Below, in pieces: positions 1,653 to 64,000 of a DNA stretch of 64,000 nt (positions are counted from its first letter, which is position 1; every line of letters starts with the position of its first letter). Origin of the DNA: Mytilus edulis (taxonomy: Eukaryota). The stretch is taken from the NCBI RefSeq assembly GCF_963676685.1, contig NC_092349.1, positions 49,352,001 to 49,416,000 of the forward strand, given 5' to 3'. The translations under genes and the position numbers were made by a program. The notes under the pieces were generated by a model. The model was not told the origin of the DNA, did no database searches, and saw only the letters and a program-made list of their open reading frames with translations.

Positions 1653-1999
1653 ATAACCATATTATGCATTTAGACAAATGGTGTAGCTAAAGCACCCACA
1701 TTGCAATTAATTCAATCTACAACATAAGGAAAGAAGAAATACATAAAGCTAAACACATGTTTCTATTAATTCTTGATGAATGATATGCATGTGAATCTTT
1801 GTACAAAGTCTCAACCAATATTGTTTTTACCACTCGAGATAAAATAAATTGGTAACCAAACTGTATCACACTGAAGAGAACACGAAATGGTGTTAGATAA
1901 AAACAGCTTAATCGTCTATGTTAACTTTTTTAAAGTCAGTTTTTATCTTCGGTTTTTCACATTGCATTTTTTTTTCAAAGGGTTGTCATTTTACATAAC

Positions 2000-34723: not shown

Positions 34724-35157
34724 TTAATCATACATTTCTAACTCCTCCCTTGAACTATCATCGACCCCATCAGTTTCTAGGTCATTAACATCTTGTATAT
34801 TTGGTGTTATGTCAAACATTTCTAACTCCTCCCTTGAACTGTCATCGACCCCATCAGTTTCCAGGTCGGTTACATCTTGCACATATGGTGTTATATCAAA
34901 CTCCTCTACAATCTCTGCAACCCTCTTCAGTTCACAATCTTCCAAGGCTTTAATCAGCTTCTCTTTTGTAGCATCATGACCGTTGGACTCTTGCCACTTA
35001 GTTAACATAGAGTAGGCTTTTTCTTTGACATCGTGATGATTCTGGTCAATAATACTGATAGTGCCTTCTCTTATTTCTAGATGTCGCCCAACATTTTTCC
35101 AGTCACTGATTATTTCATGGGAAACCTGAAGGAACAGCTTATTCCATGGACTATTTC
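34724..35157 (-). CDS. Terminal exon: death domain plus duplicated 28-aa acidic tail
   Basis: WNKLFLQVSHEIISDWKNVGRHLEIREGTISIIDQNHHDVKEKAYSMLTKW...ATKEKLIKALEDCELKRVAE matches the death-domain helix pattern; FDITP..DGVDDSSREELEM occurs twice. Confidence 0.85.
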
Positions 35158-38100: not shown

Positions 38101-41100
38101 GGTATTAATACAAGCATGTCTAAGTGCATCTAAAGCTAACATACCATTCTGTTGAATATTTTCCTGTTATGTGCACCTCTGGAGATGATCTTAAACTTTG
38201 GATCCTTTTTACTTTGTTGGAGTTCTAGTTTTTTCAATTTCATTTGTAATGCTGCCATTGAAAGTTCCGTTACTAGAAAAATCATTAAATAATGACATTT
38301 AATATCATGATTATGGTTATAGACAATATAAGAATTTAAATTGGAATAATATTCAACAAGTGACATTAATTTTCTATTTTATAAATGAGTAACACTGTTG
38401 ATCATGAGTAATGAGTTGGTTATTTAATTTCCATATTTTAATATATTTCTATTCTGTTTCAAAATAAGAAGATTTTTACGACCATTTTAAAATCATAGTA
38501 TAATTATAAAAGAATGAAAAAAGTAGAAAAGTAAAGGGTCTGTGTGCTTGTTTACGAGATATAAGCAATCGAAAATTTGTTAGGAAATCATTCTCTCTAG
38601 ATTTTTTCAGACTTTAATCATAGGCTACTTTTTTGTTGCAAAACTATCATACTATGAAAAAATAACAAAAATTTAAAAGATTTTCATCCATGGCTTTTTT
38701 TTAAAACTAGTCTATCCAAATTATTTTAGAAAAGAATTCCACTCAAGCCAGTGCTAGGAGTTGTCATAACCTTGCAGTGAGGTGACAGTTTGTTTGGCTC
38801 CTTGTTGAAAACCTCACTTTGATTTTGAGATGAAGAACAGCTATAAAAGTGCTGTTCCTTTGATTTTGTGTGTTTTGTTGTTGATCATGTACTAATTTTG
38901 TGTCATGGACCCCATATCCTCATGTTTTTCCATTATTGTCATGAAATAATGAAAATAAAAGTCGGGGTTAGCAGACAAACTTCTTTTAATGACAATACAT
39001 CATGTACATAGTTAAAACCATAAGATTACGAAAATCTGGCAAAAATTTAAAAACAAAGAGGAGCTTAATTATTCAATTAAGACTTTTAATGTTTAATGGT
39101 AAATAAAGAATAAGAATTAGCTAAAAAAAAATCTAGCGTGTTCTTCCATTGTTTGGTGTAAACATGATAATGCCATTGACAATGCCCTGCAATTGACAAA
39201 CCAAATATTCCAGAGATGTAAAATACTTACCTTTTTCAACTGATCCTGTAGATGATGCCTGGAAAACAGTTTCTATGGTACCAGTCTGTGAGCCAGGACC
39301 TTTGGTAGGATTTTCACAATGACATAAGCAGAGGATCGACCCATCTATGACATTAACATCTTTGTAAGACCTGTGTTTTTCTACATAAAATCCTTTATGT
39401 ACTAGATGAAGTTCACTTTCTTCCAACCTCAGTTTTTCAGCAAAAGAAGAAGTGATTTCTCCTATTTGATCATCTGGGTTATCAACTTTGACATGAATAA
39501 AAGTTTCGTTTAGTTCAGTATCTGTCCTATGTGGTAATGTTTTGTGGAGGTAAAGACGGAATATGATTCTACTTTCATTAAAAAGCATCTCTAAATTTGC
39601 TTTCTTTTCGATAATATCTTCTAAAAGAATAGATTCTTCTAAAGCTTTGTTCTTGTAGAGCAAGTCAAACTGCTTTGGCACTATATCACATCTTTTACAG
39701 ATCTTGTTCTTTAACTCTTCAACTGAACACATAGGATATTCTTGCAAGGTAAAACTGTCCATATCAGGTAACCCCGATTTAATTGTCAAGACTATTTTCT
39801 TAGTTCTACGAACAGTGAGCACAGAATTTGAGCTAATTTTTATGGGCAGGTTCTGTATATTTTCAACTTCGTCAATGACATTTGAACTACTAGGAAGGAA
39901 AACTTCAAAAGATTTTGGGTTCCAATGACAATGTTTTGAGATCTCATGCCTAAGTTCGACTGTTGAGCAATCAGATCTAACAAACACAGTGAATGGATGC
40001 ATGTGTCCTCTATCTTCGCCAATAATTCGGACCCTTAACTGAATATCAGAACATGGCTTAGGAGTAAAATGAACAATGAATGTTGGATAAGAATGATCAA
40101 TATTGGTGTCTCTCATTAACTGTTTTTCATTGAAGAGTAAACAAATGATGGCTTTCATATTGTAATCAACTCTTTTCCCCATGTCATCTGTGACAGAAAA
40201 ATCTGCAATGTCTTTACCACGAAATTCCTTCACTTCTTTAGCTGCTCTCTTTAAGTAAGCTCTTAAAAACTGCTCTATAGTATCTGTTGATAACTGTTCT
40301 ATATGTAAAACTAATGAAGTCTGATAAGATTGGTGGTAACAAAATTTTACTATGTTTGTTTTGATTTTCACTACATCAAAATAAAAAGCATTTCTTGGTA
40401 TTTGATTCAAAATTTCTACTTTCAATGTAGTTTCTCCGTTTTCATTGTCTAGGCACAGTTGAAGTAATTCCTCAGATAACTGTTGTTTAATGAACTGTAT
40501 GTTGTAGAGAGTGATTGGTTTTGGAAGCGATACACAGATAAAAGGTACTGGATTCTCTAAAAGCATTACATTGTTGCTTACAGGAGTTGGTGTATTTGCA
40601 AACTTTTTAGATATGAAAAATGTTAATTGTTTTGTTCTTTCATGTGGAAGAAACACAAATATTGATTGAAAAGATGACAGGAAGGATTTATGGTTTGTAC
40701 CAAAAATTTCAGCATATCGGTCGTTGTTAAGAACATTTGAAAATGGTCTTCCATATTTTAAAATAATGTCTCGCTGGACCAGCTCAAGGTTTACAAAAGG
40801 ATTTATTGGTATCTTAGAAATTTTGCCATCCACAATGTAACTACTGGTGGAATCACAATCGAAGATTAAGAATCGATATTCTGGCTTATCTGATGAAAAT
40901 GAATACCTTTTGAAACTGTTACTACCTTCTTCCGAGTTCAGTGACTCTGAAAAACATATAAAAACATGAAAAGTAATTGCAATGTTTTTGGAAACATGTT
41001 GCCTGAACTTTAACATAGCTTAACCAAATAAATAATGGGGATCTGTGTCCATTTTGCACAGATGATGCCCCTGCCTGCATTTAAAGTGGTGAAAGAACTG

Positions 41101-46455: not shown

Positions 46456-47799
46456 ATTCTGTAAGAATTGACGGATAGTTTTTATTAGAATATTTGAGGG
46501 TCTGTATGGTCCGTGTAACACTTATCAATTTAAAGTTTTAAAAAGTTTTGAAACTTTAGATTTTTGGAATTTTGATCAAAGTTTTAAAATATCAAAATTT
46601 CAAATTGTGTATAGGTTTTGAAATTTTGAAATTTTACCCAAATTATTAAAATATTAAAATTCTAAATATCGTTTATAAATTTGATAGTTTAGGAATTTGG
46701 TCAAACTTTTAAAATACTAAACCCAACGTGCAATTTTGATTATTTCACTTTTTGAAAGTTTGATTTTTTAAATTTTTGATTAAAATATCAAAAATAGAAA
46801 AGGGGCGAAAAGAGGGGTATCTGTAAACACTGATGTTAACACGGCTCTGATAACAATCATTCATAGTTATAAGTAAATAGCACGACATATATCAAATCAT
46901 TTTTAATTACAAAATAAATAATGGAAAGAAGAAGCCTGTTTTTTATGATGACATGATATATATAAAACATATTAGACATCGCATGGGATAACAGTATTCT
47001 GAAATTTTAAGGTTGTGCATCTATCAAAAATAATTTGTTAAACCTATTTAAACCGGAATTAAATAAGTTGATTTAAATCTTTTATATAAGGTTAGCGTTG
47101 AGATAATAATTCAGAGCTATTTGGTGTTCCAAGTGCCCAAACATTTAGAAGTAACAGTGAAAACTGACCAACTCGCAGTAAACCAAATAGTATTATTCGC
47201 CTTTTTGACGTTCATGATGAAGGAAGAGCCAGAAAAAGCGCTTTGGTCGCATGCATGCAATTTTAAACGTTTTTTTTTGGGTTTTGTTTATCGATTGCAT
47301 GACGATAATATATTGCCTTTTATGATTTATTTCAGTTCCAAGAAATAACACGGAAGGAATACTTAATGTATGGCGTCGCAATGAACGTTGAGCTAGGCGC
47401 GCTTCGATCAGCTGGCCCCTAGACAAAAAAGTGTACTGGTTTGACACAGTGATTATAGACGTCATACTAAACTTCGAAATATAACAATGAACTAAAATTA
47501 AAATCACACAAGACTTAAAAGGACAGAGGCTCCTGAATTGGGACAGGCGCACAAATGCGACGGGGTTAAACATGTTTCGTGAGATCAAAACCCTCCTCTA
47601 TACCTCTAGCCAATAAAGAATGAAAAACACACAGTAATACGAACAGTAGAACGCACTTGAAAAGGAATTCAAGTCCTATGTCAGAATAGGAAACAAACGA
47701 AACTAATCAAAATGACAATGATAATAAATTAACAAAGGACTACAGTAGTAGGGTGTGTGGAGTTTTAGGCACCCCAAAAACGCAGGGCGCGAGGGCGCA

Positions 47800-48095
47800 G
47801 CCAAATATGGCCAAGCCCCGCCCCTTTATCGAAACGTCCCCTCCGGTTGACCAAATATGGTCAGCTGACTAGGACGACACAACATGACTCATAAGTCCAT
47901 CGTTCGTAATTACGCTCAGTTGAAATGACTCATATCCACAAATAAGGTAAGAACGTTACAATATGACTCGTCGTCAGACGTGACTCATGTTGATCGGGGA
48001 TGATTCAAAAACGGAAGGGTGATATCCATATACGGACATGTATCGAATCGACCAATGGCAAGGACGGAACGAAAGTATAAAACGACCCCGCCCCC
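47800..48095 (+). promoter_or_regulatory. Left-end promoter/enhancer of the PC4-like gene
   Basis: CArG CCAAATATGG at 47801 and 47851; AP-1 TGACTCA at 47885, 47926 and 47981; GC boxes CCCCGCCCC; CCAAT ~48052; TATAAAA ~48076. Confidence 0.65.
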
Positions 48096-48128: not shown

Positions 48129-48638
48129 ATGGAGAGCGCACGTTGTAACTTAGAGTTGGGCAATAATAGATTTGTCCAGGCCACCGAATGGAAAGGAGAA
48201 ATAAGAATCGACGTGCGAGAATGGGAGATGAAAGACGGAAAGTTGAAACCCACGAAAAAAGGACTCAGCCTTCCCCTGTCCAGATGGAAGCTTCTCGTCG
48301 ACAGTTTTGATATGGTGGACCAAGCTCTTGAAGAAAACAAAGAGTATTTGACACATCTCGGGAGAAATATGTACTGTAGCGTAAAAGCTTCCGGAATATG
48401 TGTCGATCTGAGACAGCACTTTTTGCCATCACAACAAACCGACGTGGTACCCACACGAAAAGGGATAACCCTAAGACCATCCGAATACGCCAAATTAAAA
48501 AACGTGGCTAGTGTAATTGGAGACTTTGTGCCAGAACTGTGTTCCATCGTCCCGTGTCCATATAGTTCAGACCATCAAAACCAGCTGGGATTTTTAACAT
48601 GTTCGGAGTGCAATCCAAACCACTACACGGAATGGTGA
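48129..48638 (+). CDS. Tandem PC4/Sub1-like ssDNA-binding protein with C-terminal Cys/His motif
   Basis: Two PC4 signatures, EWKGEIRIDVREW..KPTKKGLSL..W and VDLRQHF..PTRKGITL..Y, plus the tail C..HQNQLG..CSEC. Confidence 0.8.
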   Translation: MESARCNLELGNNRFVQATEWKGEIRIDVREWEMKDGKLKPTKKGLSLPLSRWKLLVDSFDMVDQALEENKEYLTHLGRNMYCSVKASGICVDLRQHFLPSQQTDVVPTRKGITLRPSEYAKLKNVASVIGDFVPELCSIVPCPYSSDHQNQLGFLTCSECNPNHYTEW

Positions 48639-49588: not shown

Positions 49589-49935
49589 TGACTCATTACA
49601 TATATAGACGTATGGATGGTGCTCATTGTTTTTTCATGGTCATCGCATGACTTAATCGATATCGATTCATCTCTCCTTATATGACCAGATACAATTCACC
49701 CATTTCTGACTCATTTCTTAATATAGACCCGTGGAAGACTCATTGTTTTGTCATGGTCATCGCGTGACTCATTCGATATCGATTCATCTCTCATTATATG
49801 ACCAGATTCATTTCGCCTACTTCTGACTCATTTCTTAATATAGATCCGTGGCTGACTCATTGATTTTACATGTTCATCGTGTGACTCAATCTCTCCTTAT
49901 ATGGTCAGATACCTTCCGCCGTACATATATAAGGC
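49589..49935 (+). promoter_or_regulatory. Tandem ~118-bp x3 enhancer array and TATA upstream of the ZnF-PolB gene
   Basis: Units start at 49589, 49707 and 49824. Six perfect TGACTCA, CArG CCTTATATGG at 49895, TATATAAG ~49926. Confidence 0.7.
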
Positions 49936-50034
49936 AACCCATCGAAAACGACGAATTATACAATTTCGACCAATTTCAATGTGACATCGGGGGGTATATA
50001 TGAACAATACGTGAATATCAATTTCATTTTCACA

Positions 50035-50358
50035 ATGGATTTGAAGTGCGATGTATGTTCCAAAACATTTTTAAGACCATCCGATCTAAAAAGGCACCAA
50101 AATTCTGTACATGGAACTCATTCATTTTCGTGTGACAAATGTGAGAAGAAGTTCACTAGAAAAGACAAATTTCTAGAACATAATAGAAAATGTACCATAA
50201 TTTGTAAATATTGTGACAGTAATTTTGAACACCAACGAGATTTTAACGAACATGATCATTTACTCCATACGGACAAAAAATATATGTGCAACAAATGTGA
50301 GAAGAAATATTCGAATAAAAGAGAATTAAAGAATCACCGAGACAAATGTTTACAATCT
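50035..50358 (+). CDS. C2H2/C2HC zinc-finger array exon; predicted exon 1 of the PolB gene
   Basis: MDLKCDVCSKTF..L.RH...H plus three further fingers, ending at a phase-0 donor TCT|GTAAGT. Confidence 0.8.
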
Positions 50359-51011
50359 GTAAGTATATCTTTCTTTTTCCGTGTCACAATACATATATCA
50401 TGACAGATTCATACAAAAGTAATCTTTTCATTTGCGTAAACACTAATTAAAACTAACAAAAATTATTATAGATAATTATAAATGATATCAATTTCAAAGT
50501 AACATTCTCAAATCAAAATCGAGCGAACAGAAAATACAGAAAACAGAATGATATTGAACAATATGTGCAACGCAATTAATAAATTATCAGTTTTATTGAA
50601 ATTAATCATTTTAGTCTCGATGTACTACACTTGTTTTCCCTGTTGTATCTCGAAATAATCGAATCAGTTAATTTATTTGTTGATATAAAGAGAAAATAAT
50701 TTCTACCATTTTTTCAAGAATTGTGAATACGTTTCGAAATATTTTGAACATTGATTAATTTAATTTAAGAATAGTGGAGGATAAATCGAAATTGCAATAC
50801 AAAAATAAAATCAGACGTGAATCATTATTATTTCAGATTAAAGATATCTGAAAATAATTTCGCTTTTCTCTTTTCTGTTTAAAATGAACTGAGTGATTTA
50901 CTTTTGTACGAATCTGTTATGAAATCTAACAAACCTTGACAGTTATATAATGTATATTCCATAGATAATAAATCCAGTGTAAAGAATTAAATCATCACAT
51001 TTTCACAATAT

Positions 51012-51789
51012 TTATTTATTTTTTTTAGGCCTGAGGTATACCACCTCAGGTCTTACATATTTTTTGTTTTTTCTTGTCTCTCTTTTCAATTCCCTTATCA
51101 GGGAATTGGCCCTGTCCTGGAGCGCAAGATGTGCACTCCACAACTCATCCACTTCCGGATGTCTCCAGTGAATTGTCTGAAAAAAAAATAAAAAATCTAT
51201 AAATATGACTCCTAAAACAGGGGTATGAGGAAATACGTCTCAAAGGGTCTTTTACGTTTTTAGATATCAGTCATTGGTTGAAAAATATTCAGTTTCTTCT
51301 AAATCAATGACCAATAATTGTATACCTATTTTGTCAGTTTTGTTTGGACTTATTCTGCTCGATTATGGATTTGATTGGTGTTCGGTAATTTTGTTATTAA
51401 CCTTATTTAACATGTAGAACAATAACTCTCTAGGTTTTTTTTTTTGTTTGTTTTTTTTTTTTTTTTGGAGTTAAAAAAAAAATGAAATAAAAAAAATAAT
51501 AGCTACTCACTGCTTCATCATTTACACTCTCCCCTATGGACGATGGGGTTTCTCTCGTCCACAGCCTTCTCCTCAGATCAGTATTAGTCTGAAATAAATT
51601 AAATAATAATAATAATAAACGAAAAGTTATTGTGTAAATGAATATGAGATTATATCACATGATGTAAAATTGAAATAGAGAGTAACCGTAACCGTAGTAT
51701 ATTGCATTCATTCATCATTCAGGTGTAAAGATAAAATTGAAACTCACCCATTCCTCATTCGGAGTACTTGATGTAGGGTTAAACGACAT
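51012..51789 (-). CDS. Nested antisense 3-exon gene in the PolB intron; 94-aa basic-tailed protein of unknown function
   Basis: Exons 51789-51748, 51588-51511, 51176-51012. Both donors are GTGAGT, both acceptors are polyT-TTCAG, both introns are phase 0, and the stop overlaps AATAAA. Confidence 0.72.
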
Positions 51790-52280
51790 TTCTCTTCAAT
51801 GGCTAGGATGCGAATGAAGAGGACAAAGGAACTTTCTTTCTATCGACTTTCAACTCTTGTTTATTCTCAAAGCTAATTTCTTTAATTGCGACAGTCATAC
51901 CTTCATTTGATGTACAGAACTGGTGTATTTGGTACAAACCTTTCCTTCGTTTATCGTATAAATATCTATGTTCCAATGTATGTCCTTCTAGCAGACGTAC
52001 TCATGTCTGGCGACATCAAGCTTCATTCTTTGTCCAAACATCCAGACAAGAGTTGTACTTAAATTATCGATATATATATAGATTAAGATTATTGTTTAAC
52101 CTCGAGATAAACACGGGGATCGAAAATGAAACTGACACACCCGAATTACTATATAATGATTGAAACATAGTGATTCGTTATTTCATATGTAACCATCAAT
52201 ATGGATATATTAGTATACGTACTTATATTCACGGAAAGTAAATGAAAGAATATATGAAAAAAAGATAATAATGTGGTAAT

Positions 52281-52316
<36 letters not shown>

Positions 52317-52737
52317 TATTTCGGATTTTTTTTATAATGCCTTGTATGTGGAAATAGATCTTTAAATTTTTTAAAAGATTGAAATTGATTTCATCAAGAT
52401 TGAAGCTAATAATATGGTATATAAAAATAGTCACATGTAATCACTGGTACTTAGATGTTTATCTCAATAAGATATATTTATTTGATTGTATTAATTATAT
52501 TCTCTTTAAACATTATTAAAAACACATGTCCAAGTAATGAAGCAAGAGGTGAAATCAAATTATCAATGTATTGAACAGATTGTGGAAAGAGAGCTAACTC
52601 TGTCTTAACTCCACAATAAAATATAGGAAAACACTACTTGTCTCCCATGTGCGTAAAAATCAAAGTACTTAGAGCACTGACATAAACTGAGGGAAAAAGA
52701 ATCAATGGATCAATAATATCATCATCTTTTTTTTCAG

Positions 52738-55700
52738 GAGAAATCTACTACTACCAAAGAACCTTCAACAGTCCCCGAGCCGGGACCCTCGGAAGGATTT
52801 AGGTGTCGTCGATGCACGGCTAGATTTTCCAATCGCCGCGAGTTGTACCTACACGGCATGCAACATCACTATCAGACAGGTGCCGGTGGTTTACAATCTC
52901 GACCTTGGACCCACGATGAAGCCCCTTGGGAAGTGGAGGAAGACAAGGCTTTGAGGACCGTTTACGAGGCCAATGCGCCCCTCATTTTAGAGAATCACAG
53001 CGAGAGTTCCGTAACATCAACATATAACGTTCCACTGACCAACGACTTCACCGTTCCCCAATTGATGGAGCAAGCCGAACGTCTCTACGATCGCCAGGGC
53101 CACGCCTTTCGACTGAACTTGGAATTTGGGTTGATTCTACGCCACACGGAAACTGGAGACTACCGTTACTTCCGGCCATTTCAGAACGAATCACTCTTTC
53201 AAAGACCCATCTATATTTCACGCCGTAAAGACCTCAACCGACTGAAATTACGTCTTCAACGCTTTAACGTCACCGACTACATCTTACGTCAGAGACCCGA
53301 CACGAAATGGAAACCGTATTTAGTCACCAACGTCCGATTCGTCTTCTATTACCTAAACTATCCCCTGGGCAACGCCGTGAAGCTACCGGACTACATTCTG
53401 CAATCGAAATCAATCGTGGGATTAGATAAGACCCGAAATGGAAAACACGTATACAAAGACCATCTGTGCGCCTTTCGTTGCCTGGCCGTGCACCACGGAC
53501 ATCGGACAGACCAGTTGGAAACCCACACTAGAGCGTTATTCCAGCGTTGGATTCAATATGCAGAAGACAAGCAACTCGATTCAACAAATTTTCAAGGACT
53601 CCCGCTTCACCAGATGGCGTATTTCGAACATTGTTTTAGCATCAACGTCAATGTGTACCATCTACGTGACGACGACGTGGCACTCACCGTCTACAAATCC
53701 CGTTGTCATTATCCAGACTCTATGCACGTCAACCAATATGATCATCATTTATCGTACATCTCGAACTTGTCGGCGTACACTCAGAAATACCAGTGCGGCA
53801 CGTGCGATCGCCATTTTAAACGGGTAGACAGCATGAAACGACACCAACTGAAATGTACCGGGCAGACCGTCTACCGCTTCAAAGGCGGATTTTATTCCAA
53901 TCCCAAAACCATCTTCGATAAACTGGAAGAACACGGCATCCGCGTCCAAGATCGGTTATATCCGTGGTTCGTCGTCTACGATTTCGAGGCCATGCTGGTG
54001 TCCATACAAGAATCCAATTCCGACAAACTCACCTGGACACAGCGACACGAACCCATCTCCGTCTCCGTCTGCAGCAATGTCGAGGGATTTACAGAGCCAC
54101 ATTGTATCGTTGACCCCACCGCTCAGTCGCTCGTTCAACACATGGTGGACTACATGACAAAAATTGCATTGATCTCATATAAACTAGCCAAAGAGAAATT
54201 TGCCGATGCTTTTGACCAACTGGAGGCTGACATCGAGAACCCGTACCGTGCCCTCCTAGAAGACGACGACGAAGAGGGGTATAAACTGGACGCCTTTTTA
54301 TACGATGAGGAATTACAGGAGGAAAATGAAAAACAGAAAAAGGTGTTCCAAAAATTAAAAGAAGAGCTAGAGGCTTACTGTCAACAGATCATCGTATTAG
54401 GGTTCAATTCGGCAAAATACGACATGAACCTCATCAAGACTTATATTGCCAAATCATTACACATGCACAATCCGGGGGAAAAATTTACAGTGAAACGCAA
54501 TAACAGCTATGCCTGCCTGGCCAACGAGACCTTCAAATTTTTAGACATTACCTCGTATCTGGCACCCGGATTTAGCTATGCCAAATTTCTGAAAGCTTAC
54601 GAAGTAAGTGAAAATAAAGGATGTTTCCCCTACGAATGGTTCGACAGCGCTGACAAATTACATCATCCGACACTACCTGCCCACGAACAGTTTTACAGCT
54701 CATTAAAGGAATGTAACATCTCGCCAGAAGACTATGCTTATTGTCAAAAAGTGTGGACGGAGAAGGGTATGTCGACGTTCCGAGATTTTCTGGTGTGGTA
54801 TAACAATCTCGATGTCGGACCTTTCGTCCAGGCCGTGGCAAATTTACAGAAATTTTATTTCGAGCGGGACATCGACCTCTTCAAGACCAGCATTTCCGTC
54901 CCCGGATTAGCACGCCGGATGCTCTTCGATACCGGTCGACAAGTCGGTGCTTCGTTTGCTTTGTTCGACGACGCCAACAGTGACCTCTACTTCAGCATTA
55001 AACAGAATCTGATCGGTGGACCGTCCATCATCTTCAATCGCCATCACGAAGTCGGGCAAACGTTCATCCGGAACAATTTCAACAAGCCCTGCCAGAAGAT
55101 CCTCGGTTTCGACGCCAATGCCCTCTACCTCTATTGCATCGACCAAGACATGCCGACGGGTCCGTTCGTTCGCCGGCGATTAGAGGACGGCTTCAAACCT
55201 CAAAAGCGGGATAGGTATACCATGATGTATGACTGGATGGACTACCTGAATCACTCCCAGGGTCTCGACATCCGACACAAACTAAACACCGGCAAAGAAA
55301 AGAAGATCGGCTCGTATCCCGTCGACGGCTACGATCCTACTACAAATACAGTCTACCAATTCAACGGATGTTACTGGCACGGACATCAATGCTGGATGAC
55401 GAAAAACGTCAAAGACCAGAAATGGCAGGAGACCCGGCAAGCCAAATTCGACAAGACCGCCAAGACCACAGAGTTCATCCGGGCGCAAGGCTATAAAGTC
55501 GTCGAGAAATGGGAATGTCATTTTCGTCACGAGATCAGAAGAAATGGACAATTGAAATCCTTCTGCCACTCCCGGAAACCGGCGACCCCGCAACGATCCG
55601 TCACAGAAATCGAGATTCTAGAGGGGGTAGCTAGCGGTCGACTCTTTGGTATGGTAGAATGCGACATCCGGGTCCCAGACGAATGGCCCTCACACTTTCA

Positions 55701-57081
55701 ACATCCGACCATGACGCCGTACCAATACTTTGAGGAAATGTCACCTTTGTTCTGTACCACCGACGTCCCTTTCGAAGTCATCGGCGAACACATGCAAGAG
55801 CACGTTCGCCGTTTCGAATTGTCAGAAAAACCTCGTCGACTACTGGTGGGAGGTATGCGAGGACGCCAGATGCTAATCGCCACTCCGCTCCTGAAATGGT
55901 ACCTGGAACACGGTATGCTCGTCACCAAGATATACCAAGTCGTGGAATTTAAACCGCAGCGATGTTTCAGGGATTTCGTTAACGTCGTCAGCGACAACCG
56001 ACGACTGGGAGACGCCGATCCCGACAAGACCATCATCGCCGAAACCTCCAAACTCCACGGCAATAGTGCTTACGGCGGAACCATCATGGACCAGGAAAAA
56101 TTTCAATCGGTGACGTACGTCGAAGGCGAGGGCAGGGTCATGATCGAGGCCAACAAGCCACAATTTAAAAAGATGACCACTCTGTTAGACGAAGACGAAT
56201 ACTTCGAAGTGGAAAAGTCGAAAGAGAAATTGGACATCAACCTTCCCATACAGATCGGCTATTTCATCCTACAGTACGGTAAACTAAGAATGTTACAATT
56301 TTATTTCGATTTTCTGGACCGGTTTGTAGACCGCTCCGATTTCCAGTATTGCGAAATGGACACCGATTCCGCATACATGGCCCTCTCCGGACCCGATTTG
56401 GTTAGCGTCATCAAACCACACCTGCTAGATACTTATCAACGAGCTCTCATCGGCTGTTGTCGGGACGATTTTGAACCCGATTGGCTCCCGCGCACGTGTT
56501 GCACCAAACATGCCAAGTACGATAAGAGGACGCCCGGACTATTTAAAGTCGAATACGAGGGTGACGTCATGATCGGACTATGTTCCAAGACCTATATCGT
56601 ACAAAAGTCCAAACTCGTCTACACTTCGAACACAAAGATGGCAGCCTTCCGACTTCTCAGACGTGCCAAGAAACTTGCACCGAAGCGCCTCGTCCATCGT
56701 CCGCGTCTCGTCCGGGATGTCAAATTCAGTTCCAAAGGCGTCACCAAGAGACGGGTCAAGGCACCCATGACCACCTTTCGCCACGTCCTCAATACACAAC
56801 GCGTGGGGAACGGATCGCTTAAAGGATTCCGAGCCAGAAACAACGGCATAGCCACCTATGAACAGACGAGAAATGGCTTCTCATATTTTTACTGTAAGAG
56901 GAAACTTTTAAGCGACGGCGTGAGTAGTGTTCCTCTCGATCTAGAACTGTGCCCCGTGCCTATGGAAATCGACGAAAGCGAAACCCCCATGGAAATAGAC
57001 GAACCCGAGACGGTTCTGGACGACGACGATCGATATTTAATACAACTACTGGAAACTAACTTTGATAGTGATGGTGAATGA
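52738..57081 (+). CDS. polB: Protein-primed family B DNA polymerase (ZnF, terminal-protein region, OTU-like domain, exonuclease, polymerase with Vsr-like insertion)
   Basis: ExoI VVYDFEA, ExoII GFNSAKYD, ExoIII YNNLDV, motif A DANALY, motif B KLHGNSAYG, motif C MDTDS, KTY. The frame is open from the acceptor TTTTTTTCAG|GAG at 52738. Confidence 0.95.
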   Translation, partial: EKSTTTKEPSTVPEPGPSEGFRCRRCTARFSNRRELYLHGMQHHYQTGAGGLQSRPWTHDEAPWEVEEDKALRTVYEANAPLILENHSESSVTSTYNVPLTNDFTVPQLMEQAERLYDRQGHAFRLNLEFGLILRHTETGDYRYFRPFQNESLFQRPIYISRRKDLNRLKLRLQRFNVTDYILRQRPDTKWKPYLVTNVRFVFYYLNYPLGNAVKLPDYILQSKSIVGLDKTRNGKHVYKDHLCAFRCLAVHHGHRTDQLETHTRALFQRWIQYAEDKQLDSTNFQGLPLHQMAYFEHCFSINVNVYHLRDDDVALTVYKSRCHYPDSMHVNQYDHHLSYISNLSAYTQKYQCGTCDRHFKRVDSMKRHQLKCTGQTVYRFKGGFYSNPKTIFDKLEEHGIRVQDRLYPWFVVYDFEAMLVSIQESNSDKLTWTQRHEPISVSVCSNVEGFTEPHCIVDPTAQSLVQHMVDYMTKIALISYKLAKEKFADAFDQLEADIENPYRALLEDDDEEGYKLDAFLYDEELQEENEKQKKVFQKLKEELEAYCQQIIVLGFNSAKYDMNLIKTYIAKSLHMHNPGEKFTVKRNNSYACLANETFKFLDITSYLAPGFSYAKFLKAYEVSENKGCFPYEWFDSADKLHHPTLPAHEQFYSSLKECNISPEDYAYCQKVWTEKGMSTFRDFLVWYNNLDVGPFVQAVANLQKFYFERDIDLFKTSISVPGLARRMLFDTGRQVGASFALFDDANSDLYFSIKQNLIGGPSIIFNRHHEVGQTFIRNNFNKPCQKILGFDANALYLYCIDQDMPTGPFVRRRLEDGFKPQKRDRYTMMYDWMDYLNHSQGLDIRHKLNTGKEKKIGSYPVDGYDPTTNTVYQFNGCYWHGHQCWMTKNVKDQKWQETRQAKFDKTAKTTEFIRAQGYKVVEKWECHFRHEIRRNGQLKSFCHSRKPATPQRSVTEIEILEGVASGRLFGMVECDIRVPDEWPSHFQHPTMTPYQYFEEMSPLFCTTDVPFEVIGEHMQEHVRRFELSEKPRRLLVGGMRGRQMLIATPLLKWYLEHGMLVTKIYQVVEFKPQRCFRDFVNVVSDNRRLGDADPDKTIIAETSKLHGNSAYGGTIMDQEKFQSVTYVEGEGRVMIEANKPQFKKMTTLLDEDEYFEVEKSKEKLDINLPIQIGYFILQYGKLRMLQFYFDFLDRFVDRSDFQYCEMDTDSAYMALSGPDLVSVIKPHLLDTYQRALIGCCRDDFEPDWLPRTCCTKHAKYDKRTPGLFKVEYEGDVMIGLCSKTYIVQKSKLVYTSNTKMAAFRLLRRAKKLAPKRLVHRPRLVRDVKFSSKGVTKRRVKAPMTTFRHVLNTQRVGNGSLKGFRARNNGIATYEQTRNGFSYFYCKRKLLSDGVSSVPLDLELCPVPMEIDESETPMEIDEPETVLDDDDRYLIQLLETNFDSDGE

Positions 57082-57611
57082 CATGTATACACATTCTGTG
57101 AACTTTAAAATTTGATACATTCAATTTTCCAATTGTATTCATTTTATCGTGTGATAATCGAAGACGTATGACATTGGGTAGCCATGTTTTTTTGTTGTTT
57201 TTTTTTTGTTGTTTTTTTTTTTTATACAAGTAACTATACATTTCCACTATGACGAGAATGGGTACTGAAGTTCGATTAAAACCACATAACTCGTAAACGA
57301 TCAGAATTGAAAAACACCATGTAAATATTTTTGTCAACAATAAATGTATATTGTGTATAATAAAATGTATATTGTGTATGTTTCATATTGTCGTTCATCT
57401 GGCCTGATGGAATGTCGAAAACTATTTTTCGTCCTTATCCCCCCCTCCTTGTCATAACGAAAAATAGTTCTTGACTTTCTAGTCTACAATAAATAATAGG
57501 AAATGAATGAAAACAAATTAGACACTAAATATTTATTTACATCAGTTACAAATTGAACAAAATACCCAGAAACAACATCTATATATATTAATCCATAAAT
57601 AATTAGCAATG

Positions 57612-58025
57612 TTAATTTGTAAAGCGGTCATCAAGTTGGATTATTTTCTTTGTCATTTCATAGAATCCATCTTTGTCTGGTAAATTATTTTCTCGCCATT
57701 CACAGTTTTGTAAAAGTTTTATAAATGTATTTTTCAATTCCAATGATATGTCTGTAAGTTTAGTGTCCTTTTTCCACAATTCTAAGATTTCTTCGCAATC
57801 AACATTTTCCAAAGCATCGTCGAAGTAGATATTCAGTTGTTCTAACTCGGACATCATGAGACAGGAATGATTTCTCTGACTGGGATGATTGTTTCTACAT
57901 CCAAAACAATGTTTTCTGGTTAAAAGTCTGACTTCTTCTACCACTTTTCTAGCATATAGGAACAAGTATATATCAATCGTCATTCGAATCTCTTTACCCT
58001 CAGTAATGGTTTGTGTTGATTCCAT
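57612..58025 (-). CDS. Polinton accessory protein with CxGC..HPSQ..HxC motif, 137 aa
   Basis: CFGCRNNHPSQRNHSCL, with TATAAA ~45 nt upstream and AATAAA downstream (~57531). Confidence 0.7.
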   Translation of the reverse strand: MESTQTITEGKEIRMTIDIYLFLYARKVVEEVRLLTRKHCFGCRNNHPSQRNHSCLMMSELEQLNIYFDDALENVDCEEILELWKKDTKLTDISLELKNTFIKLLQNCEWRENNLPDKDGFYEMTKKIIQLDDRFTN

Positions 58026-59135
58026 CTCGATGGTTTAGAAAGACTCTGTGAACGTTGGATGCCAACGCTGTTTATAAAGGATATTTGATCACGTGATGGC
58101 GTGTCGTTTGATAAGCTTAACAACACTGACAGATGTCGAAATCTGGAATTTGATGTGATAGCGAATAGACAATTGGGTTCCCATTTTAAATGTTCCGTTT
58201 GTATATAGTCGTCTTTTTTCCCATTGTAAGGTTACAGTAAAAACATGTTACACGATCCGGTGTAAAATAATCCATTAATAATTAAATCTTTGCACAATCT
58301 GTCTAGGCCAATGTTCGAATCATATAATACAATTTTAACGGATGTTTTGGTTGATGGAAATAAACGAGTAGGAGACGGTCATGGACGACGAGGATCGATA
58401 TCTGATTTATCTATTGGAAACTAACTTTGACAGCGAATGAGATCGTATATTGTGTGTGTGTGACACACATTCTGGGACCTTTTAAATTTGATAGATCCAA
58501 TTGAACTCATTTTGTCCTGTGAAAATCGAAGAGGCATGACATTGGGTAGTCATGTTTTGTGTTTTTTTTTAATTTTTCATGCAAGTTCCCATACATTTTC
58601 TATAGTAAAAAAGAAGACTCGAAAGAACAGTTCAGTTCATTTTTTGAGCGAGTAAAAACACATTCTTGTTAAATGTAAACAATCGGAAATGACCAGTGGG
58701 GTAAAATGAAAACGTTCTAAAACTTAATGGAAATTACACTAGACTGGGACTATTTTTCTGTGAACTTTTAAATTTGATAGACAATTTTTCCAACTGTACT
58801 CATTTTGTCGTGTGTAAAAAGAATGTGTGACCATGTTTGTTTTTTTTTTAAATACGAGTAACCATACATTTCCTATCACTCGAAATTTGTGAATAAAAAC
58901 ACATAATTGACTTGTAAATAATAATTTGTGTATAATAAAATGTATATTGTGTATGTTTCATATTGTCGTTCATCTGGCCTGATGGAATGTCGAAAACTAC
59001 TTTTCGTCGTTATCAACCCCCACCCCCCCTCCTTGTCATAACGAAAAATAGTTTTTGACTTTCCAGTCTACAATAAATAATAAACTCGATAGTCTAATCT
59101 ACATTTTTATTCATCCACATTTTACAAAGACATAT

Positions 59136-59640: not shown

Positions 59641-60294
59641 TTATAATTTCTGTGGAATGTAGATCACCGTATCTTCTCCCGGGAACACGTGGGTCCTCAA
59701 TCGATAGGTATCGTCGGAATTTGGTGCCAAATCGACGATTAAGTAGCCGTAGTCTCGCGAAGTGGCGTCGGAAAAGCTTTTCATCAGTATCTTCCAACGT
59801 CCTGGATAGAGTTGTCGCCCCAAGGTCACGATCTGGGAGACGTCTCTGACGTTTTTCATCAGAACCAAGTACGTGGTGTTGAGGGCGATGGTTCGCGACC
59901 TGGATCCTTGTACATATAGGTTTTGGGTCAGAAACAAGACGCTCAATCGTCGGTGGTGGCATCCCTGTGTGAATAGCAGTTCCATGTCGACGTTGCGCAC
60001 TACTTGATGCATCAGATCGTCCAACACGATCAGGCGGTGACGTCTATCGCCGGTGAATTCCCGGACCGTGTCCATCGTAGGTAAGCCCTCGTGAAAAACG
60101 ATGTTGGGAATCGTCTTTTCCATCTCTTCGAATAGCGGCTGGTGGATGCCGAAACAATACAAGATGGCTTCCGGTGGCTCTTCGGCGTACATCTCTTTTA
60201 AATGTGTCAATAGTCTGTACACGAATCGCGTCTTCCCGCTGTTGGTCATCCCCGTGATGCACATGCTCGTGCAAGGTAAAAACGGAAACGACAT
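59641..60294 (-). CDS. A32/FtsK-like genome packaging ATPase
   Basis: Walker A GMTNSGKT, Walker B LIVLDD, HHRRLSVLFLTQN. Confidence 0.92.
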   Translation of the reverse strand: MSFPFLPCTSMCITGMTNSGKTRFVYRLLTHLKEMYAEEPPEAILYCFGIHQPLFEEMEKTIPNIVFHEGLPTMDTVREFTGDRRHRLIVLDDLMHQVVRNVDMELLFTQGCHHRRLSVLFLTQNLYVQGSRSRTIALNTTYLVLMKNVRDVSQIVTLGRQLYPGRWKILMKSFSDATSRDYGYLIVDLAPNSDDTYRLRTHVFPGEDTVIYIPQKL

Positions 60295-60324
60295 GGTTAA
60301 TCGTCTTTCTGCATCCGTCCTCTC

Positions 60325-60555
60325 TTATGACTTTGACGATTTGAGCGTGGGACTGGGTAGAGCGTATCCGATGGCGCTACTTAGCAGCGTGATCCACAAT
60401 TCGCTTTTACCGTTTTGCATCGACAGGTTGGCGATCGAGGTGATGATGATGACGTAGACGACTATCATCTGACAAAAGTAGACGATTTCCGATTTGGGTA
60501 GTTGGCTGCCCATCACTTGCCATCGTTCACTATGCGTGCTGCTCTCGCGCTCCAT
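60325..60555 (-). CDS. Small two-helix membrane protein
   Basis: Hydrophobic IVYFCQMIVVYVIIITSIANL and LWITLLSSAIGYALP; TATAAGAG 26 nt upstream. Confidence 0.7.
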   Translation of the reverse strand: MERESSTHSERWQVMGSQLPKSEIVYFCQMIVVYVIIITSIANLSMQNGKSELWITLLSSAIGYALPSPTLKSSKS

Positions 60556-60995
60556 CCTCGACGGGTTGTACCAATTCTTCCTCTTATAAACTTCTTCACT
60601 TTGCGATCGTTGTCTCGCAGATCTACGGTGCTAAAGTCGTTGAGGATCTCTTGAAAAGATCGCGAGCCGTGTCTCTCCCGGACGAAATGAATGCAGTAGG
60701 CTCCACAGGTATTGCTGTCTTCCGGTTGGACGGCATCCGGCGTATACAGATAGGTCGGTCCCAGGACTTCTTCGAATCGACGATGGTAGTCACCCGGACG
60801 GTTTCCCAGCGAGTCGAAAAATTCGGGAGGTCCTTGAAGAGGAAAACGAAACACGGTCCAGTGAGTCCCAGGTCTGGAACACGGATCGGTGTTGACGACG
60901 TACGTCTGTGGTCTCTGTGGTCGCACTAATTCGTCGGCACAGATGGCTCGGACGTGTTGGTCTCTCAGCGCTCTTTCCACCTCTCGGTTGTTCAT
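60513..60995 (-). CDS. Adenain-like cysteine protease (virion maturation protease)
   Basis: NTD..PGTHW (His), FFDSLG (Asp), Q..DSNTCGAYC (Gln/Cys). Confidence 0.92.
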   Translation of the reverse strand: MNNREVERALRDQHVRAICADELVRPQRPQTYVVNTDPCSRPGTHWTVFRFPLQGPPEFFDSLGNRPGDYHRRFEEVLGPTYLYTPDAVQPEDSNTCGAYCIHFVRERHGSRSFQEILNDFSTVDLRDNDRKVKKFIRGRIGTTRRGWSARAARIVNDGK

Positions 60996-62254
60996 TGTAG
61001 CAAGACGCGTCGAGATTGATCCACGTGCATCACTTTGGGAAACTTGCCGTACATCAGGACGGTCACGCTCTCCGGCAGGGGCGTCCCGAATTTGATTACC
61101 AGTCGACAGTCTCCTCTCCGCTTGGCGTTGAAATCGACTCGATCGTCGACGTTGAGGACGAAGAGGGCAAACCCACCGGCGTAATCCAAGAGGGAGACGT
61201 CTACGTCGTCCCTGAAGGTAGCGAGTGTCCTGTAGGCGTCCACGTAGTTTCTACCGGCGAAATTGGGTTGTAGCGGTTGACTGGGGTACGATTGTCCGTC
61301 GACGTACAATCCCAAAAAGTTGCAGTCGAACCCCTGGAAATTGAACGGCGATCTCTTATAACTTCCACTGAAGGCTTCGCTGCTGACGAGGGCCACGATT
61401 AATTGGCTGGGAACGTCTCCCTGGAACAAATTGTTCTCGATGAATCCGTACTCTCCCTTGGATACGGAAGCCGTCTTGAAGTGACTGGTTACGAACGGAT
61501 ACATGGCCGTGGCGTCTCCCAACAATTTGCTGTGGGCCATCAACACTCCGGCGTTTGGTGTCTGTAGACACACTTTGAAGGCGGCATCCAGGATCTGCAC
61601 TCGGTAAGCCGCGTCGTCGTCGCTGGACATCAGGCGAAAGGCGTTCTTACTGGGCCACAGCTTCAGGGTCAACGGGATGCCGTTCAACAACAGGCGATGT
61701 TGACGAAACACGTCCAAATGTAAAGGTCCTTCCATCTCCAGGATCCTGCCTTCTCGGGTGTATAAAGAGCGACGGTACAATCCCTGGTTCGCTCCTCCTT
61801 GGACGTTGGCGTCGTCGAGATGTCCGGCCGTGTCTCTCATAAAGAGCTGCGAATCTAATAGTACTTTATCGCTGGCTCCGGTCTCCAGTAAGGTGTCGAT
61901 GTAGGCCTTGAACGGATAATTGGATCCCATTTGCGCGACGGGCGTCTGTTGAAGACTGCATTCCACCTCAGAAAAGAGGGCTTGAAGCGACAGGTTGACT
62001 AATGCCACGTTGGTGTCTTTGGCGACCGAGGTACCGTCGGCCTTCAGGAGACGCAGTTTGACTTTCAGTGAACTTCGCTTCAGATCCATGTAGGCGGCCG
62101 ATTGCGCCGGAATCGAGAAGTCCAAGGGAGCGTCCGCACTGATTTGATTCGTCGGTCTAAATTCTATCCATTCTCTTCTCTGTATCCCCGTGTTGGCCGG
62201 TGGAGGGGAAAACAAGGACAGCTCGTCTTCGTGATTTTCTTCCAAGTGGTTCAT
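60992..62254 (-). CDS. Major capsid protein (double jelly-roll)
   Basis: 420 aa with Polinton MCP-type motifs (ELSLFSPP..T.I...EWIEFRP, NYPFKAYIDTLL, GSYKRSPFNF); lies between protease and penton. Confidence 0.88.
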   Translation of the reverse strand: MNHLEENHEDELSLFSPPPANTGIQRREWIEFRPTNQISADAPLDFSIPAQSAAYMDLKRSSLKVKLRLLKADGTSVAKDTNVALVNLSLQALFSEVECSLQQTPVAQMGSNYPFKAYIDTLLETGASDKVLLDSQLFMRDTAGHLDDANVQGGANQGLYRRSLYTREGRILEMEGPLHLDVFRQHRLLLNGIPLTLKLWPSKNAFRLMSSDDDAAYRVQILDAAFKVCLQTPNAGVLMAHSKLLGDATAMYPFVTSHFKTASVSKGEYGFIENNLFQGDVPSQLIVALVSSEAFSGSYKRSPFNFQGFDCNFLGLYVDGQSYPSQPLQPNFAGRNYVDAYRTLATFRDDVDVSLLDYAGGFALFVLNVDDRVDFNAKRRGDCRLVIKFGTPLPESVTVLMYGKFPKVMHVDQSRRVLLQ

Positions 62255-62547
62255 GATTCATCCAGTTGGTTGAACGTTCGCCTGCGCTTTCGCCCTCTTA
62301 TAACTTTCGGAGAGGCCAGTTCCGATTTGACCATCTCGAGGGTTTGCGCAAGCGGCGTCACCAGTTGAACCTTGGGCGTCGTCTCTGGGCGCCAACGAGC
62401 GCCGCTGCCCACGATGTATCGTCCCTTGTGGTCGGGTCGGACCCTTCCTGCCGATAGGTCCGAGAAATGTTGCTCCCACTTTTTGTGATCGGGAACGTAC
62501 GGTATCCAGCGTTGTGACTTGTGGTCGTACACTTCTATCGAACCCAT
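62251..62547 (-). CDS. Small Polinton protein (98 aa), basic C-terminus
   Basis: YVPDHKKWEQHF..LVTP..Q.LE..KSEL..RGRKRRR; overlaps both neighbouring genes in a compact cluster. Confidence 0.7.
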   Translation of the reverse strand: MGSIEVYDHKSQRWIPYVPDHKKWEQHFSDLSAGRVRPDHKGRYIVGSGARWRPETTPKVQLVTPLAQTLEMVKSELASPKVIRGRKRRRTFNQLDES

Positions 62548-62957
62548 CTTCGTCTGCGTATGTGAAGCGTGCAGTACAAGCAGTCGGTTTTAAATCGACA
62601 TGCCCGTAACTGGTCGTCTCTTATAAAGATTCGCACCCGATTCAAGTCTGTTTGACGTAATCTGACGTAATAAGGTTTGGTATACTCTAAAGTTCCTTCC
62701 TCGATCGGTTCGGTGGATCGCAAGAGCGGCAAGAAACTATTCCGCACGTAGGATTCCTCTACCACGTCGGCACAGACGTAGAGTCGATTGGTTTGGCATT
62801 CCGGTTGAGACGGTAGGGCGAGTTCCGTCAGTGCGCATTCCCACGTACCCTCCAGCAGGTATCTCTTGGGAAGATCCACCACGAAGTCCCCAGCGTGGTT
62901 ATCGGAATGGTCCTTGAGCGAATCGCCGCTGTACAGGTGCAGGTAGACATCCTCCAT
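62535..62957 (-). CDS. Minor capsid protein (penton, single jelly-roll), compact 140 aa
   Basis: YLHLYS..S.....DN...DF.VDLP....LEG.WECALTEL N-terminus and LHIRR C-terminus typical of Polinton pentons. Confidence 0.85.
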   Translation of the reverse strand: MEDVYLHLYSGDSLKDHSDNHAGDFVVDLPKRYLLEGTWECALTELALPSQPECQTNRLYVCADVVEESYVRNSFLPLLRSTEPIEEGTLEYTKPYYVRLRQTDLNRVRIFIRDDQLRACRFKTDCLYCTLHIRRRRWVR

Positions 62958-63000
62958 CGTGTCGTCATCTCGGTGCCCCGCTAGTCCCCTCTTATGAATG

Positions 63001-63345
63001 TCACTGTTCTCCAGAACGAAGAGAGAAGACGATGGCTCGATTGAGGTACTGGGATCTCATCAGACGCGGGATCGTCTCGTGGAAAGTCATCAGGGCGTTC
63101 TTTTTTCTTTGTAGAGATATTCTACCATCGATCAGTTGACGGAGGAGGAGAGAACGCTCTCTAAAGTGGGAAGCGTCTTGCTGAAGGACGTGGATGAATC
63201 CTTGGACGATGAGACGGACGACTTCGGACACGGCCTGCATCTGTGGTCTCGTCATGAATCGCACCAATAGCTTTCTCGCGGGTTTGTTCGCCTGTCCTAG
63301 TTGTTGTAGGTAGTGAAGGCGTTCATATACGATAGACTGGTCCAT
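63001..63345 (-). CDS. Small basic Polinton protein (114 aa), paralog of 59300-59611
   Basis: LHYLQQLGQANKPARKLLV...QMQAVSEVV..IVQGFI; TATAAGAG 28 nt upstream. Confidence 0.72.
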   Translation of the reverse strand: MDQSIVYERLHYLQQLGQANKPARKLLVRFMTRPQMQAVSEVVRLIVQGFIHVLQQDASHFRERSLLLRQLIDGRISLQRKKNALMTFHETIPRLMRSQYLNRAIVFSLRSGEQ

Positions 63346-63347
63346 GA

Positions 63348-64000
63348 TTACGCGGAAGGTTGTGGTTCCGGTCTCTTATAGTCTTTCAAAGACGTCAGGG
63401 AGATCCAACTGTTGAATTTCGCCGGCCATCCCATCCACTTTACCAACGCGTCTTGACGTCGTCGGCGAATGACTTTTTCGATACGGTACACCGTCTCCTC
63501 GGTGACTCTCACCCTGTTCAGCTCCGATTGGTAAAAGGTATCTTCCACGACGTCACCGAGCGTGTCCTTCAACGTGTAATACGATATGCCATCTTTCGTG
63601 CCCCTGTCGTCCACCACGAAAAACTCCATCGTCCATCGTTCGTCGTACTCTCGATCAAACGGCTGTCTAACGTGCGAGATGCGGACGGTATCTCCTTTTC
63701 GGAACGCGTAGCCTCGTGTCGCTGGTTTCACGTACTGTTGCGTCGGGTACTGGAGTTTCCACAGTCGGGCTTCGTCCTTTTTAGTCACCGCACGGGGAGC
63801 CATCTTGATGGAACGGTGGTAGGCGGCATTGTAGCTCTGTGTGGTGTCGTCCAGCACGTCGATCCAACGATGCGTTTGATGACGGGTTAGGTATCGGAAG
63901 AGTCTAGCCTTCAGCGTCTTGATGCATCGTTCGGCGTAGGAACTTTTCTGTTCGTTCTGGGTGTAAAAATAGTCAACCTTCTCGGCTTTCAAGAAACGTT
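63348..64000 (-). CDS. int: Retroviral-like (rve) integrase with C-terminal chromodomain; 5' part outside window
   Basis: AERCIKTLK (catalytic E), YN...HRSIKMAP, F..GD.VRIS and chromodomain YRIEKVI...LVKWMGWPAKFNSWI. Confidence 0.92.
   Translation of the reverse strand, partial: RFLKAEKVDYFYTQNEQKSSYAERCIKTLKARLFRYLTRHQTHRWIDVLDDTTQSYNAAYHRSIKMAPRAVTKKDEARLWKLQYPTQQYVKPATRGYAFRKGDTVRISHVRQPFDREYDERWTMEFFVVDDRGTKDGISYYTLKDTLGDVVEDTFYQSELNRVRVTEETVYRIEKVIRRRRQDALVKWMGWPAKFNSWISLTSLKDYKRPEPQPSA

Follow-up and report, generated by a model that had tools for sequence, protein, structure and literature searches.

Intact Mavericks, or Polintons, of vertebrates have been described as elements of 12-25 kb with AGTAGT ends, a 6-bp duplication and two converging modules, and the accessible text of this description states their genes to be intronless (Barreat and Katzourakis 2021, PMC8097293). 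Marine molluscs harbour pPolB2 Polintons with a protein-primed polymerase carrying a VSR insert, an integrase and terminal repeats; a spliceosomal intron or a nested gene is not mentioned in the available portion of the corresponding article (Jeong et al. 2023, PMC10748475). In adintoviruses, motif-bearing genes termed 'Oncoids' are located upstream of the polymerase body and, in the sections at hand, are defined by LXCXE/CK2/CR1 motifs and paired CXXC (Starrett et al. 2021, PMC8502044); neither 'splic' nor 'Mytilus' occurs in the text of that paper. Introner insertions, finally, are known in dinoflagellate Polinton-like elements, according to the accessible part of a further study (PMC12166617).

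The locus analysed here, a stretch of 64,000 nucleotides from Mytilus edulis (hereafter the window), contains a Polinton that shares the ends, the duplication and the converging modules of vertebrate Mavericks as well as the polymerase, integrase, terminal repeats and host type of the mollusc elements, but its polymerase gene has one intron, within which a small gene with two or three introns of its own lies on the opposite strand (Table 1). Like the Oncoids, this is a small accessory gene near the polymerase start of an animal Polinton-type element, known by linear motifs rather than by homology. Unlike them, it is spliced, antisense and placed inside an intron, and its protein has none of the Oncoid-defining motifs, the three exons of the window being devoid of Cys. 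No spliced or nested Polinton gene was found described in the literature searched, a body of work outside which most subscription papers and Repbase entries fell; gene family and arrangement are apparently undescribed, within a known kind of element.

Table 1. Features of the Polinton and its nested gene, by position in the window
Feature	Position	Strand	Basis
Left terminal inverted repeat, AGTAGT end, 339 bp	47744..48082	+	repeat pair match 99%
PC4-like gene	48129..48638	+	Pfam PC4 E 1.6e-24
Polymerase exon 1, C2H2 zinc-finger N-terminus	50035..50358	+	Pfam zf-C2H2 E 1.8e-13; ATG 50035
Polymerase intron, 2,379 nt, contains nested gene	50359..52737	+	splice signals and frame
Nested gene, exon 3, 54 codons and TAA; predicted coiled coil, YxRPEVVYLRP, basic tail	51012..51176	-	sequence, profile, heptads
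8-bp inverted repeat (hairpin) over PEVVYLR codons, just before poly(A) signal	51030..51050	.	
Nested gene, intron 2, 334 nt, GTGAGT...TCAG	51177..51510	-	exactly removed in RNA-type contigs
Nested gene, exon 2, 26 codons, phase 0-0	51511..51588	-	sequence; donor used in contigs, three studies
LRRRLW, candidate atypical (RxLW) cyclin-docking motif, core of RRxLW[TS]R	51559..51576	-	conservation and published preferences
Nested gene, intron 1, 159 nt	51589..51747	-	sequence; retained in contigs covering it
Nested gene, coding exon 1, ATG, 14 codons, one TP, phase-0 GTGAGT donor	51748..51789	-	sequence
Polymerase exon 2, protein-primed DNA polymerase B with VSR nuclease insert	52738..57081	+	
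Packaging ATPase, protease, major/minor capsid candidates, integrase	59641..64000	-	all open

The element measures 18,611 bp from its start at 47744, its right terminal repeat ending 2,354 bases past the window. It has the terminal inverted repeats with AGTAGT ends and the 6-bp target duplication (GACTAC) that mark Polintons/Mavericks, and its second copy, located on C10, matches it at 99.4% along 18.3 kb and has the same ORFs open. The window element is an intact Polinton that was recently active. Its PC4, zinc-finger, polymerase B, integrase and TBP-like proteins pass the Pfam cut-offs. The integrase does so in the 99%-identical C10 copy (PF00665, rve, E 1.2e-10), the window ORF encoding the same 368 amino acids, and the polymerase (DNA_pol_B_2, PF03175) reaches 35.8 bits against a cut-off of 25.8 with its polymerase part as query, and has no match to this family when the whole ORF is the query; VSR matches at polymerase residues 880-938. 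Packaging ATPase (Pox_A32, E 1e-4) and protease (Peptidase_C5, E 0.002) lie slightly below the cut-offs, and the major and minor capsid candidates, which we presume to be such from size and gene order, have no family match in the Pfam searches. At the right end of the element, just past the window, a TBP-like protein (Pfam E 2.9e-22) and a 213-residue ORF that appears macrodomain-like by eye and has no Pfam match are encoded on the minus strand (L042:657-1178 and 1332-1973). With PC4 at its left and the TBP-like protein at its right end, the element holds two mimics of general transcription factors. Blocks at 56989-57500 and 58354-59082 are duplicated around the polymerase end, and a 137-residue minus-strand ORF (57612-58025) contains a His/Cys motif and has no Pfam match. 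Upstream of the insertion, minus-strand host exons (39133-41019 and 34724-35167) encode ubiquitin-like domains (Pfam E 2.5e-09) and, as judged by eye, a death-domain-like stretch.

The zinc-finger exon is directly followed by a phase-0 GTAAGT donor, and the AG acceptor of the intron is in frame with the polymerase ORF. The intron is further supported by two distant Polintons of the same genome, L076 and L080, in which the zinc fingers are contiguous with the polymerase, with no intron between them; element L083 has a short polymerase intron without a nested gene. For the window lineage, the zinc-finger-to-polymerase junction was seen in none of the three RNA-type contig sets, which have no cover on the zinc-finger exon, and one contig from a related element joins a different sequence at 52738, a flank of 27 letters that is absent from the genome. 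Contigs of three runs start within the intron (52611-52740) and cross the polymerase acceptor unspliced; such starts could reflect an additional promoter of the polymerase, whose transcripts would leave out the zinc fingers. In a tree of 13 polymerase N-terminal blocks, from which L081 and L087 were omitted as too short, the intron-bearing elements lie on one supported side. The presence of the nested gene requires two changes on this tree, at weak support, and a single origin is compatible with it; L082 and L083, both internally deleted, are placed among the carriers, again at weak support, and have no nested gene.

The nested gene had been proposed in an earlier note, made from the DNA letters alone, as three minus-strand exons that join in phase 0 inside a Polinton polymerase intron and end in a stop codon overlapping AATAAA. 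Each of these points holds. All three exons are open, have lengths that are multiples of three and are bounded in phase 0, with poly-T/CAG acceptors, and their translations match piece by piece; two overlapping AATAAA (51020-51015 and 51016-51011) touch the TAA; and the host intron, 2.4 kb long, belongs to an intact element of 18.6 kb. A three-exon, all-phase-0 chain near AATAAA was found once in the real intron, never on its plus strand and in none of 500 resampled introns, in a control that is lenient, because the real gene was known when its criteria were chosen and because resampling loses poly-T tracts.

Part of the stretch occurs in 20 of the 24 listed sequencing runs; 14 of these are RNA by guess only, and none of them is on record as RNA. 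Four runs were analysed against the locus, X1, X3 and X4 as contigs from three studies (depths 4-17, RNA status guessed) and X24 as raw reads. X1, X3 and X4 each contain one contig that goes from 51176 to 51511 and drops exactly 334 bases, so that the predicted junction between exons 2 and 3 is present at its exact GT-AG ends in all three sets, as read from a table of contig pieces that lists no joint row (rows at repeats being dropped). The junction predicted between exons 1 and 2 (51748/51588) was seen in none of the three sets, all of which read through intron 1, and the 5'-UTR intron considered possible at 51900-51803 was not removed in any of them. Contig cover extends over about 51045-52156 and is missing at 49900-50988 and 52199-52561, suggesting, as far as contigs that show presence only can tell, that these are transcripts of the nested gene and not polymerase pre-mRNA. 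The deeper contig of X3 (17.5 versus 4.1) departs exactly at the exon 2 acceptor into 122 letters that match nothing in 49900-53500, and the first exon in this run may be a different one; the main exon 3 contig of the same run has a net loss of one base, which means that a broken copy is transcribed. The raw-read RNA run X24 contributed a single read of 12.7 million. The nested gene is a transcribed and spliced gene, in which removal of intron 2 was observed in the RNA-type contigs, while splicing of exon 1 is suggested by gene calls and by parallel first exons in related copies.

These copies fall into three lineages. Lineage A has two intact copies, one in the window and one on C10, with all three exons open, and three on C11 that are broken or partial. 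Lineages B and C are about 50% and 25% alike to the window gene in the last exon, the non-identical genome matches to exon 3 ranging from 47 to 58%. Six of the eleven exon 3 genome matches belong to lineage B, as do L085, L088 and L089; a weak, stop-containing match at C7:73.09 Mb (L027/L038) with no Polinton gene nearby was set aside. The exon 3 acceptor of lineage B is at the same place, and its exon 2 is likewise of phase 0-0. Most B copies are fragments; in L028, L088 and L089 the zinc-finger exon is still present and arranged in the same way, and L085 alone retains a polymerase, its four-exon nested gene lying upstream on the antisense strand, within the polymerase intron. In this element (1000-4135), an A-type polymerase, 96% identical, is combined with a B-type nested gene directly followed by the terminal repeat, which suggests cassette exchange; the nested gene has a duplicated exon 2, and the zinc-finger exon is missing. 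L085 is thus a likely recombinant with its zinc-finger exon deleted. One B copy has a duplicated exon 2a that is without RRxL. A TATA/initiator reading, which fits one B copy, fails for the window gene. Lineage C has its full copy in L084, where PC4 and zinc finger are followed by an intron of 4 kb, which houses an antisense gene of four exons, and then by a polymerase that is 69% identical in its N-terminal block. Against a profile from which it had been left out, the last exon of lineage C reaches 10.9 bits, a score attained by 1 of 2000 shuffles, and short ATG first exons with a TP and a phase-0 donor are found in lineages B and C too. It may be that one clade gained an intron where zinc fingers and polymerase meet, and that this intron then served as a slot for an exchangeable cassette.

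Eleven further last-exon matches of lineage C form a tandem array (C11:25536570-25551952; L105, L106), the units of which, about 1.5 kb each, carry exons 2-4 of the gene, some of them broken; L019/L021 show a similar tandem duplication of lineage B. Nearly all broken copies of the three lineages cluster on C11 at about 25-40 Mb, a region that resembles a transposon graveyard or a small-RNA cluster.

Public but unnamed Mytilus records, all of them gene predictions, exist for each lineage. CAG2213400.1 agrees with lineage A in 13/14, 25/26 and 41/45 residues over exons 1-3, with identical borders. VDI72306.1 matches lineage B (7/7, 28/28 and 29/29) and XP_063438856.1 lineage C (10/10, 28/28, 30/30 and 49/50), the exon borders agreeing in both. 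The gene call of CAG2213400.1 departs from exon 3 at an internal donor, and the exons that follow are unrelated; this may reflect a chimeric transcript of Polinton and host or an artefact of prediction. In a metagenome scan, 11 stretches fitted the peptide pattern and none was confirmed; the exact degenerate pattern had no match there, and viral contigs gave none for the nested gene.

Synonymous sites are saturated between the three lineages; divergence among the copies of lineage A is too low to be informative on selection. Residues shared by A and B use different codons in six of seven cases in the first block of exon 3 and in six of nine in exon 2, where the count for B and C is seven of eight. 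Intron DNA of the window has four short matches with L085 and none with L084. Within exon 2, the seven residues around the Trp, a window picked after the motif had been seen, are identical between lineages at five or six positions, versus 3-5 of 19-20 in the flanks. Conserved throughout are RRxLW[TS]R, a putative coiled coil and, at the C-terminus, P[ED]xxxLRP with its basic tail. Codon turnover and profile comparison together reveal purifying selection on the nested protein, and frame and splice phase, on whose conservation in related copies the original proposal depended, recur in two further lineages with phase-0 exons. We consider it very probable that the nested gene is real and coding.

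The encoded protein begins with a short TP-containing exon, followed by the exon with RRxLW[TS]R, in lineage C only by an additional exon with ARKRLFSP, and then by heptads, P[ED]xxxLRP and the basic tail. Searches of Pfam, PHROGs, PDB and Atlas did not place it in any family. The earlier note had taken RRRLW for a cyclin-docking-like motif. In the accessible text of one study (PMC12356897), the canonical consensus is [RK]xLx{0,1}[FL]; it is absent from lineages A and B and occurs once in C (KRLF), while the atypical core RxLW is present in all three lineages (as RxIW in one B copy). The likeness to the canonical motif is accordingly incomplete, and what speaks for RRRLW is that it is the best-conserved part of exon 2 and that its Trp is of a favoured kind. 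In the same source, mutational scanning prefers Trp and Tyr over Leu after the motif Leu, as well as Arg at P-3, P-2 and P-1, and strong cyclin motifs occur in viral proteins; of the sequences that fit even the strict consensus, less than 15% were cyclin binders in its screen. Flanks of the nested motif were compared with these preferences by eye. Docking proteins of this type covered there (p21, RBL1, HPV E1, herpesvirus M97/UL97) likewise bear a basic-x-Leu-hydrophobic motif in a disordered region, but the nested protein has Trp in place of Phe or Leu in the shared motif, and Pfam finds no kinase, helicase or CDK-inhibitor domain in it, the CDI domain of Cip/Kip inhibitors being without a match at E up to 10 or 0.1.

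Other observations temper this reading. A relaxed RxL pattern arises by chance in about a fifth of shuffles, with no excess in lineages A and B, and a D-box (RxxL), considered as another reading, does not occur above chance either. The two TP sites, once offered as a cell-cycle argument, do not carry it: [ST]P is observed versus expected 2 versus 0.9 times in A (p 0.24), 3 versus 2.9 in B (p 0.59) and 4 versus 1.5 in C (p 0.04, marginal), and the full CDK site [ST]Px[KR] is found in none of the lineages. Cyclin A/E, the partner first envisaged, fits poorly with the Leu at P-4, which is reported to favour cyclin B and to hinder A2 (PMC12356897, accessible text). A complex prediction of mussel-type cyclin A 158-421 with residues 8-47 of CAG2213400.1 yielded 0.05 and 0.01, against a mark of 0.34 that peptides and host-virus pairs seldom pass, and counts neither for nor against docking. 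The cyclin reading is supported by the additional canonical A-R-K-R-L-F of lineage C, followed by SP, and by the favoured Trp and Arg flanks; it is weakened by the lack of enrichment in CDK sites, by the non-binding of most consensus matches and by the fit of RV[LI]W to PP1 docking. On balance, RxLW is a credible putative cyclin-docking motif on sequence grounds, and, given a real and coding gene, a cyclin mechanism has in our estimate just short of an even chance. Gene, nesting and motif of the initial proposal are supported, and the TP-site argument, the 5'-UTR intron, the 'early' timing and the cyclin A/E partner are not.

The C-terminal half could instead be where the protein acts, as a coiled-coil adaptor working via its zipper and P[ED]xxxLRP, with RRxLW binding a non-cyclin; it might be a decoy for a bZIP- or geminin-type host partner or a cofactor of the element's own PC4, TBP-like protein or polymerase, both of the former being encoded by the element. 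A helical segment, as had been proposed, is supported by clear heptads in the last exon, with an Asn at an a/d position in lineage C, and by the long helix predicted for the lineage C homologue (residues 64-104, pLDDT up to 93), whose model, at pTM 0.26, consists of one long helix and disorder. The first half of the lineage C protein is mostly predicted to be disordered, with helices at 44-54, 64-77 and 79-104. The last exon is also the most widely recovered part: its profile found 18 matches at E up to 0.001 among 1.84 billion representatives, of which 11 look like members (five named, all Mytilus, and six unnamed fragments). The other seven are long or repeat proteins, coiled-coil or WHEP repeats by nature; among the four that were individually checked, two were WHEP repeats, one was a heptad repeat and one a protist protein, and three were judged by length and stretch count. 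Geminin-family replication regulators have a disordered N-terminus with RRxL, followed by a coiled coil, an order that the nested protein repeats, but it has no sequence, profile or structure match to them. Geminin and bZIP family profiles do not match, no family exceeds its cut-off, and the Atlas geminin row, at 0.77, is within the chance range. In bZIP proteins a basic region adjoins the N-terminus of the zipper, and the nested protein has none there. We regard the adaptor explanation as unlikely, albeit the best of the alternatives.

It is conceivable, too, that the antisense transcription unit itself matters, damping or timing polymerase expression by interference and perhaps feeding small RNAs, with the protein being secondary. 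The opposite-strand nesting, the contigs of the nested gene beside a zinc-finger exon without cover, and the many broken copies and the tandem array gathered on C11 would agree with this, as would an RNA hairpin ahead of the poly(A) signal, which lineages A and B preserve at synonymous positions. The hairpin pattern has nine exact places in the genome versus none for a control pattern, and within its region (8-11 bp) A and B differ by 3-4 synonymous changes of 10, mostly in the loop or at the edge, versus 6 of 7 upstream; it could assist in forming the 3' end or serve as a site at the DNA level. In lineage C, however, the hairpin is absent and the peptide persists, and it is the amino acids, the frame and the phase that are preserved against a turnover of codons and introns, rendering a primary role of the RNA improbable.

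We give a slightly lower probability still to the conserved basic-hydrophobic motif being an RVxF-type docking site by which the protein would recruit PP1. RV[LI]W of lineages B and C fits the pattern that we assume for such sites, [RK]x?[VI]x[FW], but RRRLW of lineage A does not, although this lineage is intact and transcribed. A minor virion protein, such as a coiled-coil capsid cement or core protein of the 'Cah' class, would likewise be small, basic and coiled-coil, as proposed for adintoviruses in the accessible part of a preprint (10.1101/2024.03.25.586562); the location outside the capsid module, the separate poly(A) signal, the splicing and the linear motifs make this quite improbable. 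That the exons are remnants without function, or that their splice sites arose by chance, as low RNA depth, retention of intron 1 and several broken copies might suggest, is very improbable in view of the frame, phase and motifs kept across three diverged lineages with saturated synonymous sites, and of both intact element copies keeping all three exons open.

The explanation that we prefer, tentatively and with less than even confidence, is that of a spliced antisense accessory gene, whose small protein, predicted to be mostly disordered, likely docks on host cyclins, dimerises and tunes the cell cycle. A minus-strand promoter within the polymerase intron would drive the gene, and its output would be a short, spliced and polyadenylated RNA, of which the loss of intron 2 is observed and the remainder presumed. 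The product would be translated, imported into the nucleus via its basic tail and probably dimeric through the coiled coil, and RRxLW would likely bind the cyclin patch of the host. By competing with CDK substrates or serving as one, it could hold the cell in a state that supports replication, with replication factors and nucleotides at hand; lying on opposite strands, the nested gene and the polymerase gene might in addition hinder each other's transcription.

Annotation of Polintons starts from long ORFs, and their genes are described as free of introns; the polymerase gene of this recently active one is split. That its nested gene founds a new family of spliced genes in the style of small DNA tumour viruses, an antisense, lineage-swapped cassette in a polymerase intron that steers the cell cycle with a natural RxLW and was missed by ORF-based annotation, is a possibility to which we give clearly less than even odds. 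A conserved multi-exon gene that is invisible to ORF scans means that the gene content of animal Polintons may be undercounted. The natural candidate RxLW motif is of the type favoured in mutational scanning, and the nested gene offers a concrete, testable lead on the way in which an animal Polinton, once integrated, might engage the cell cycle of its host.
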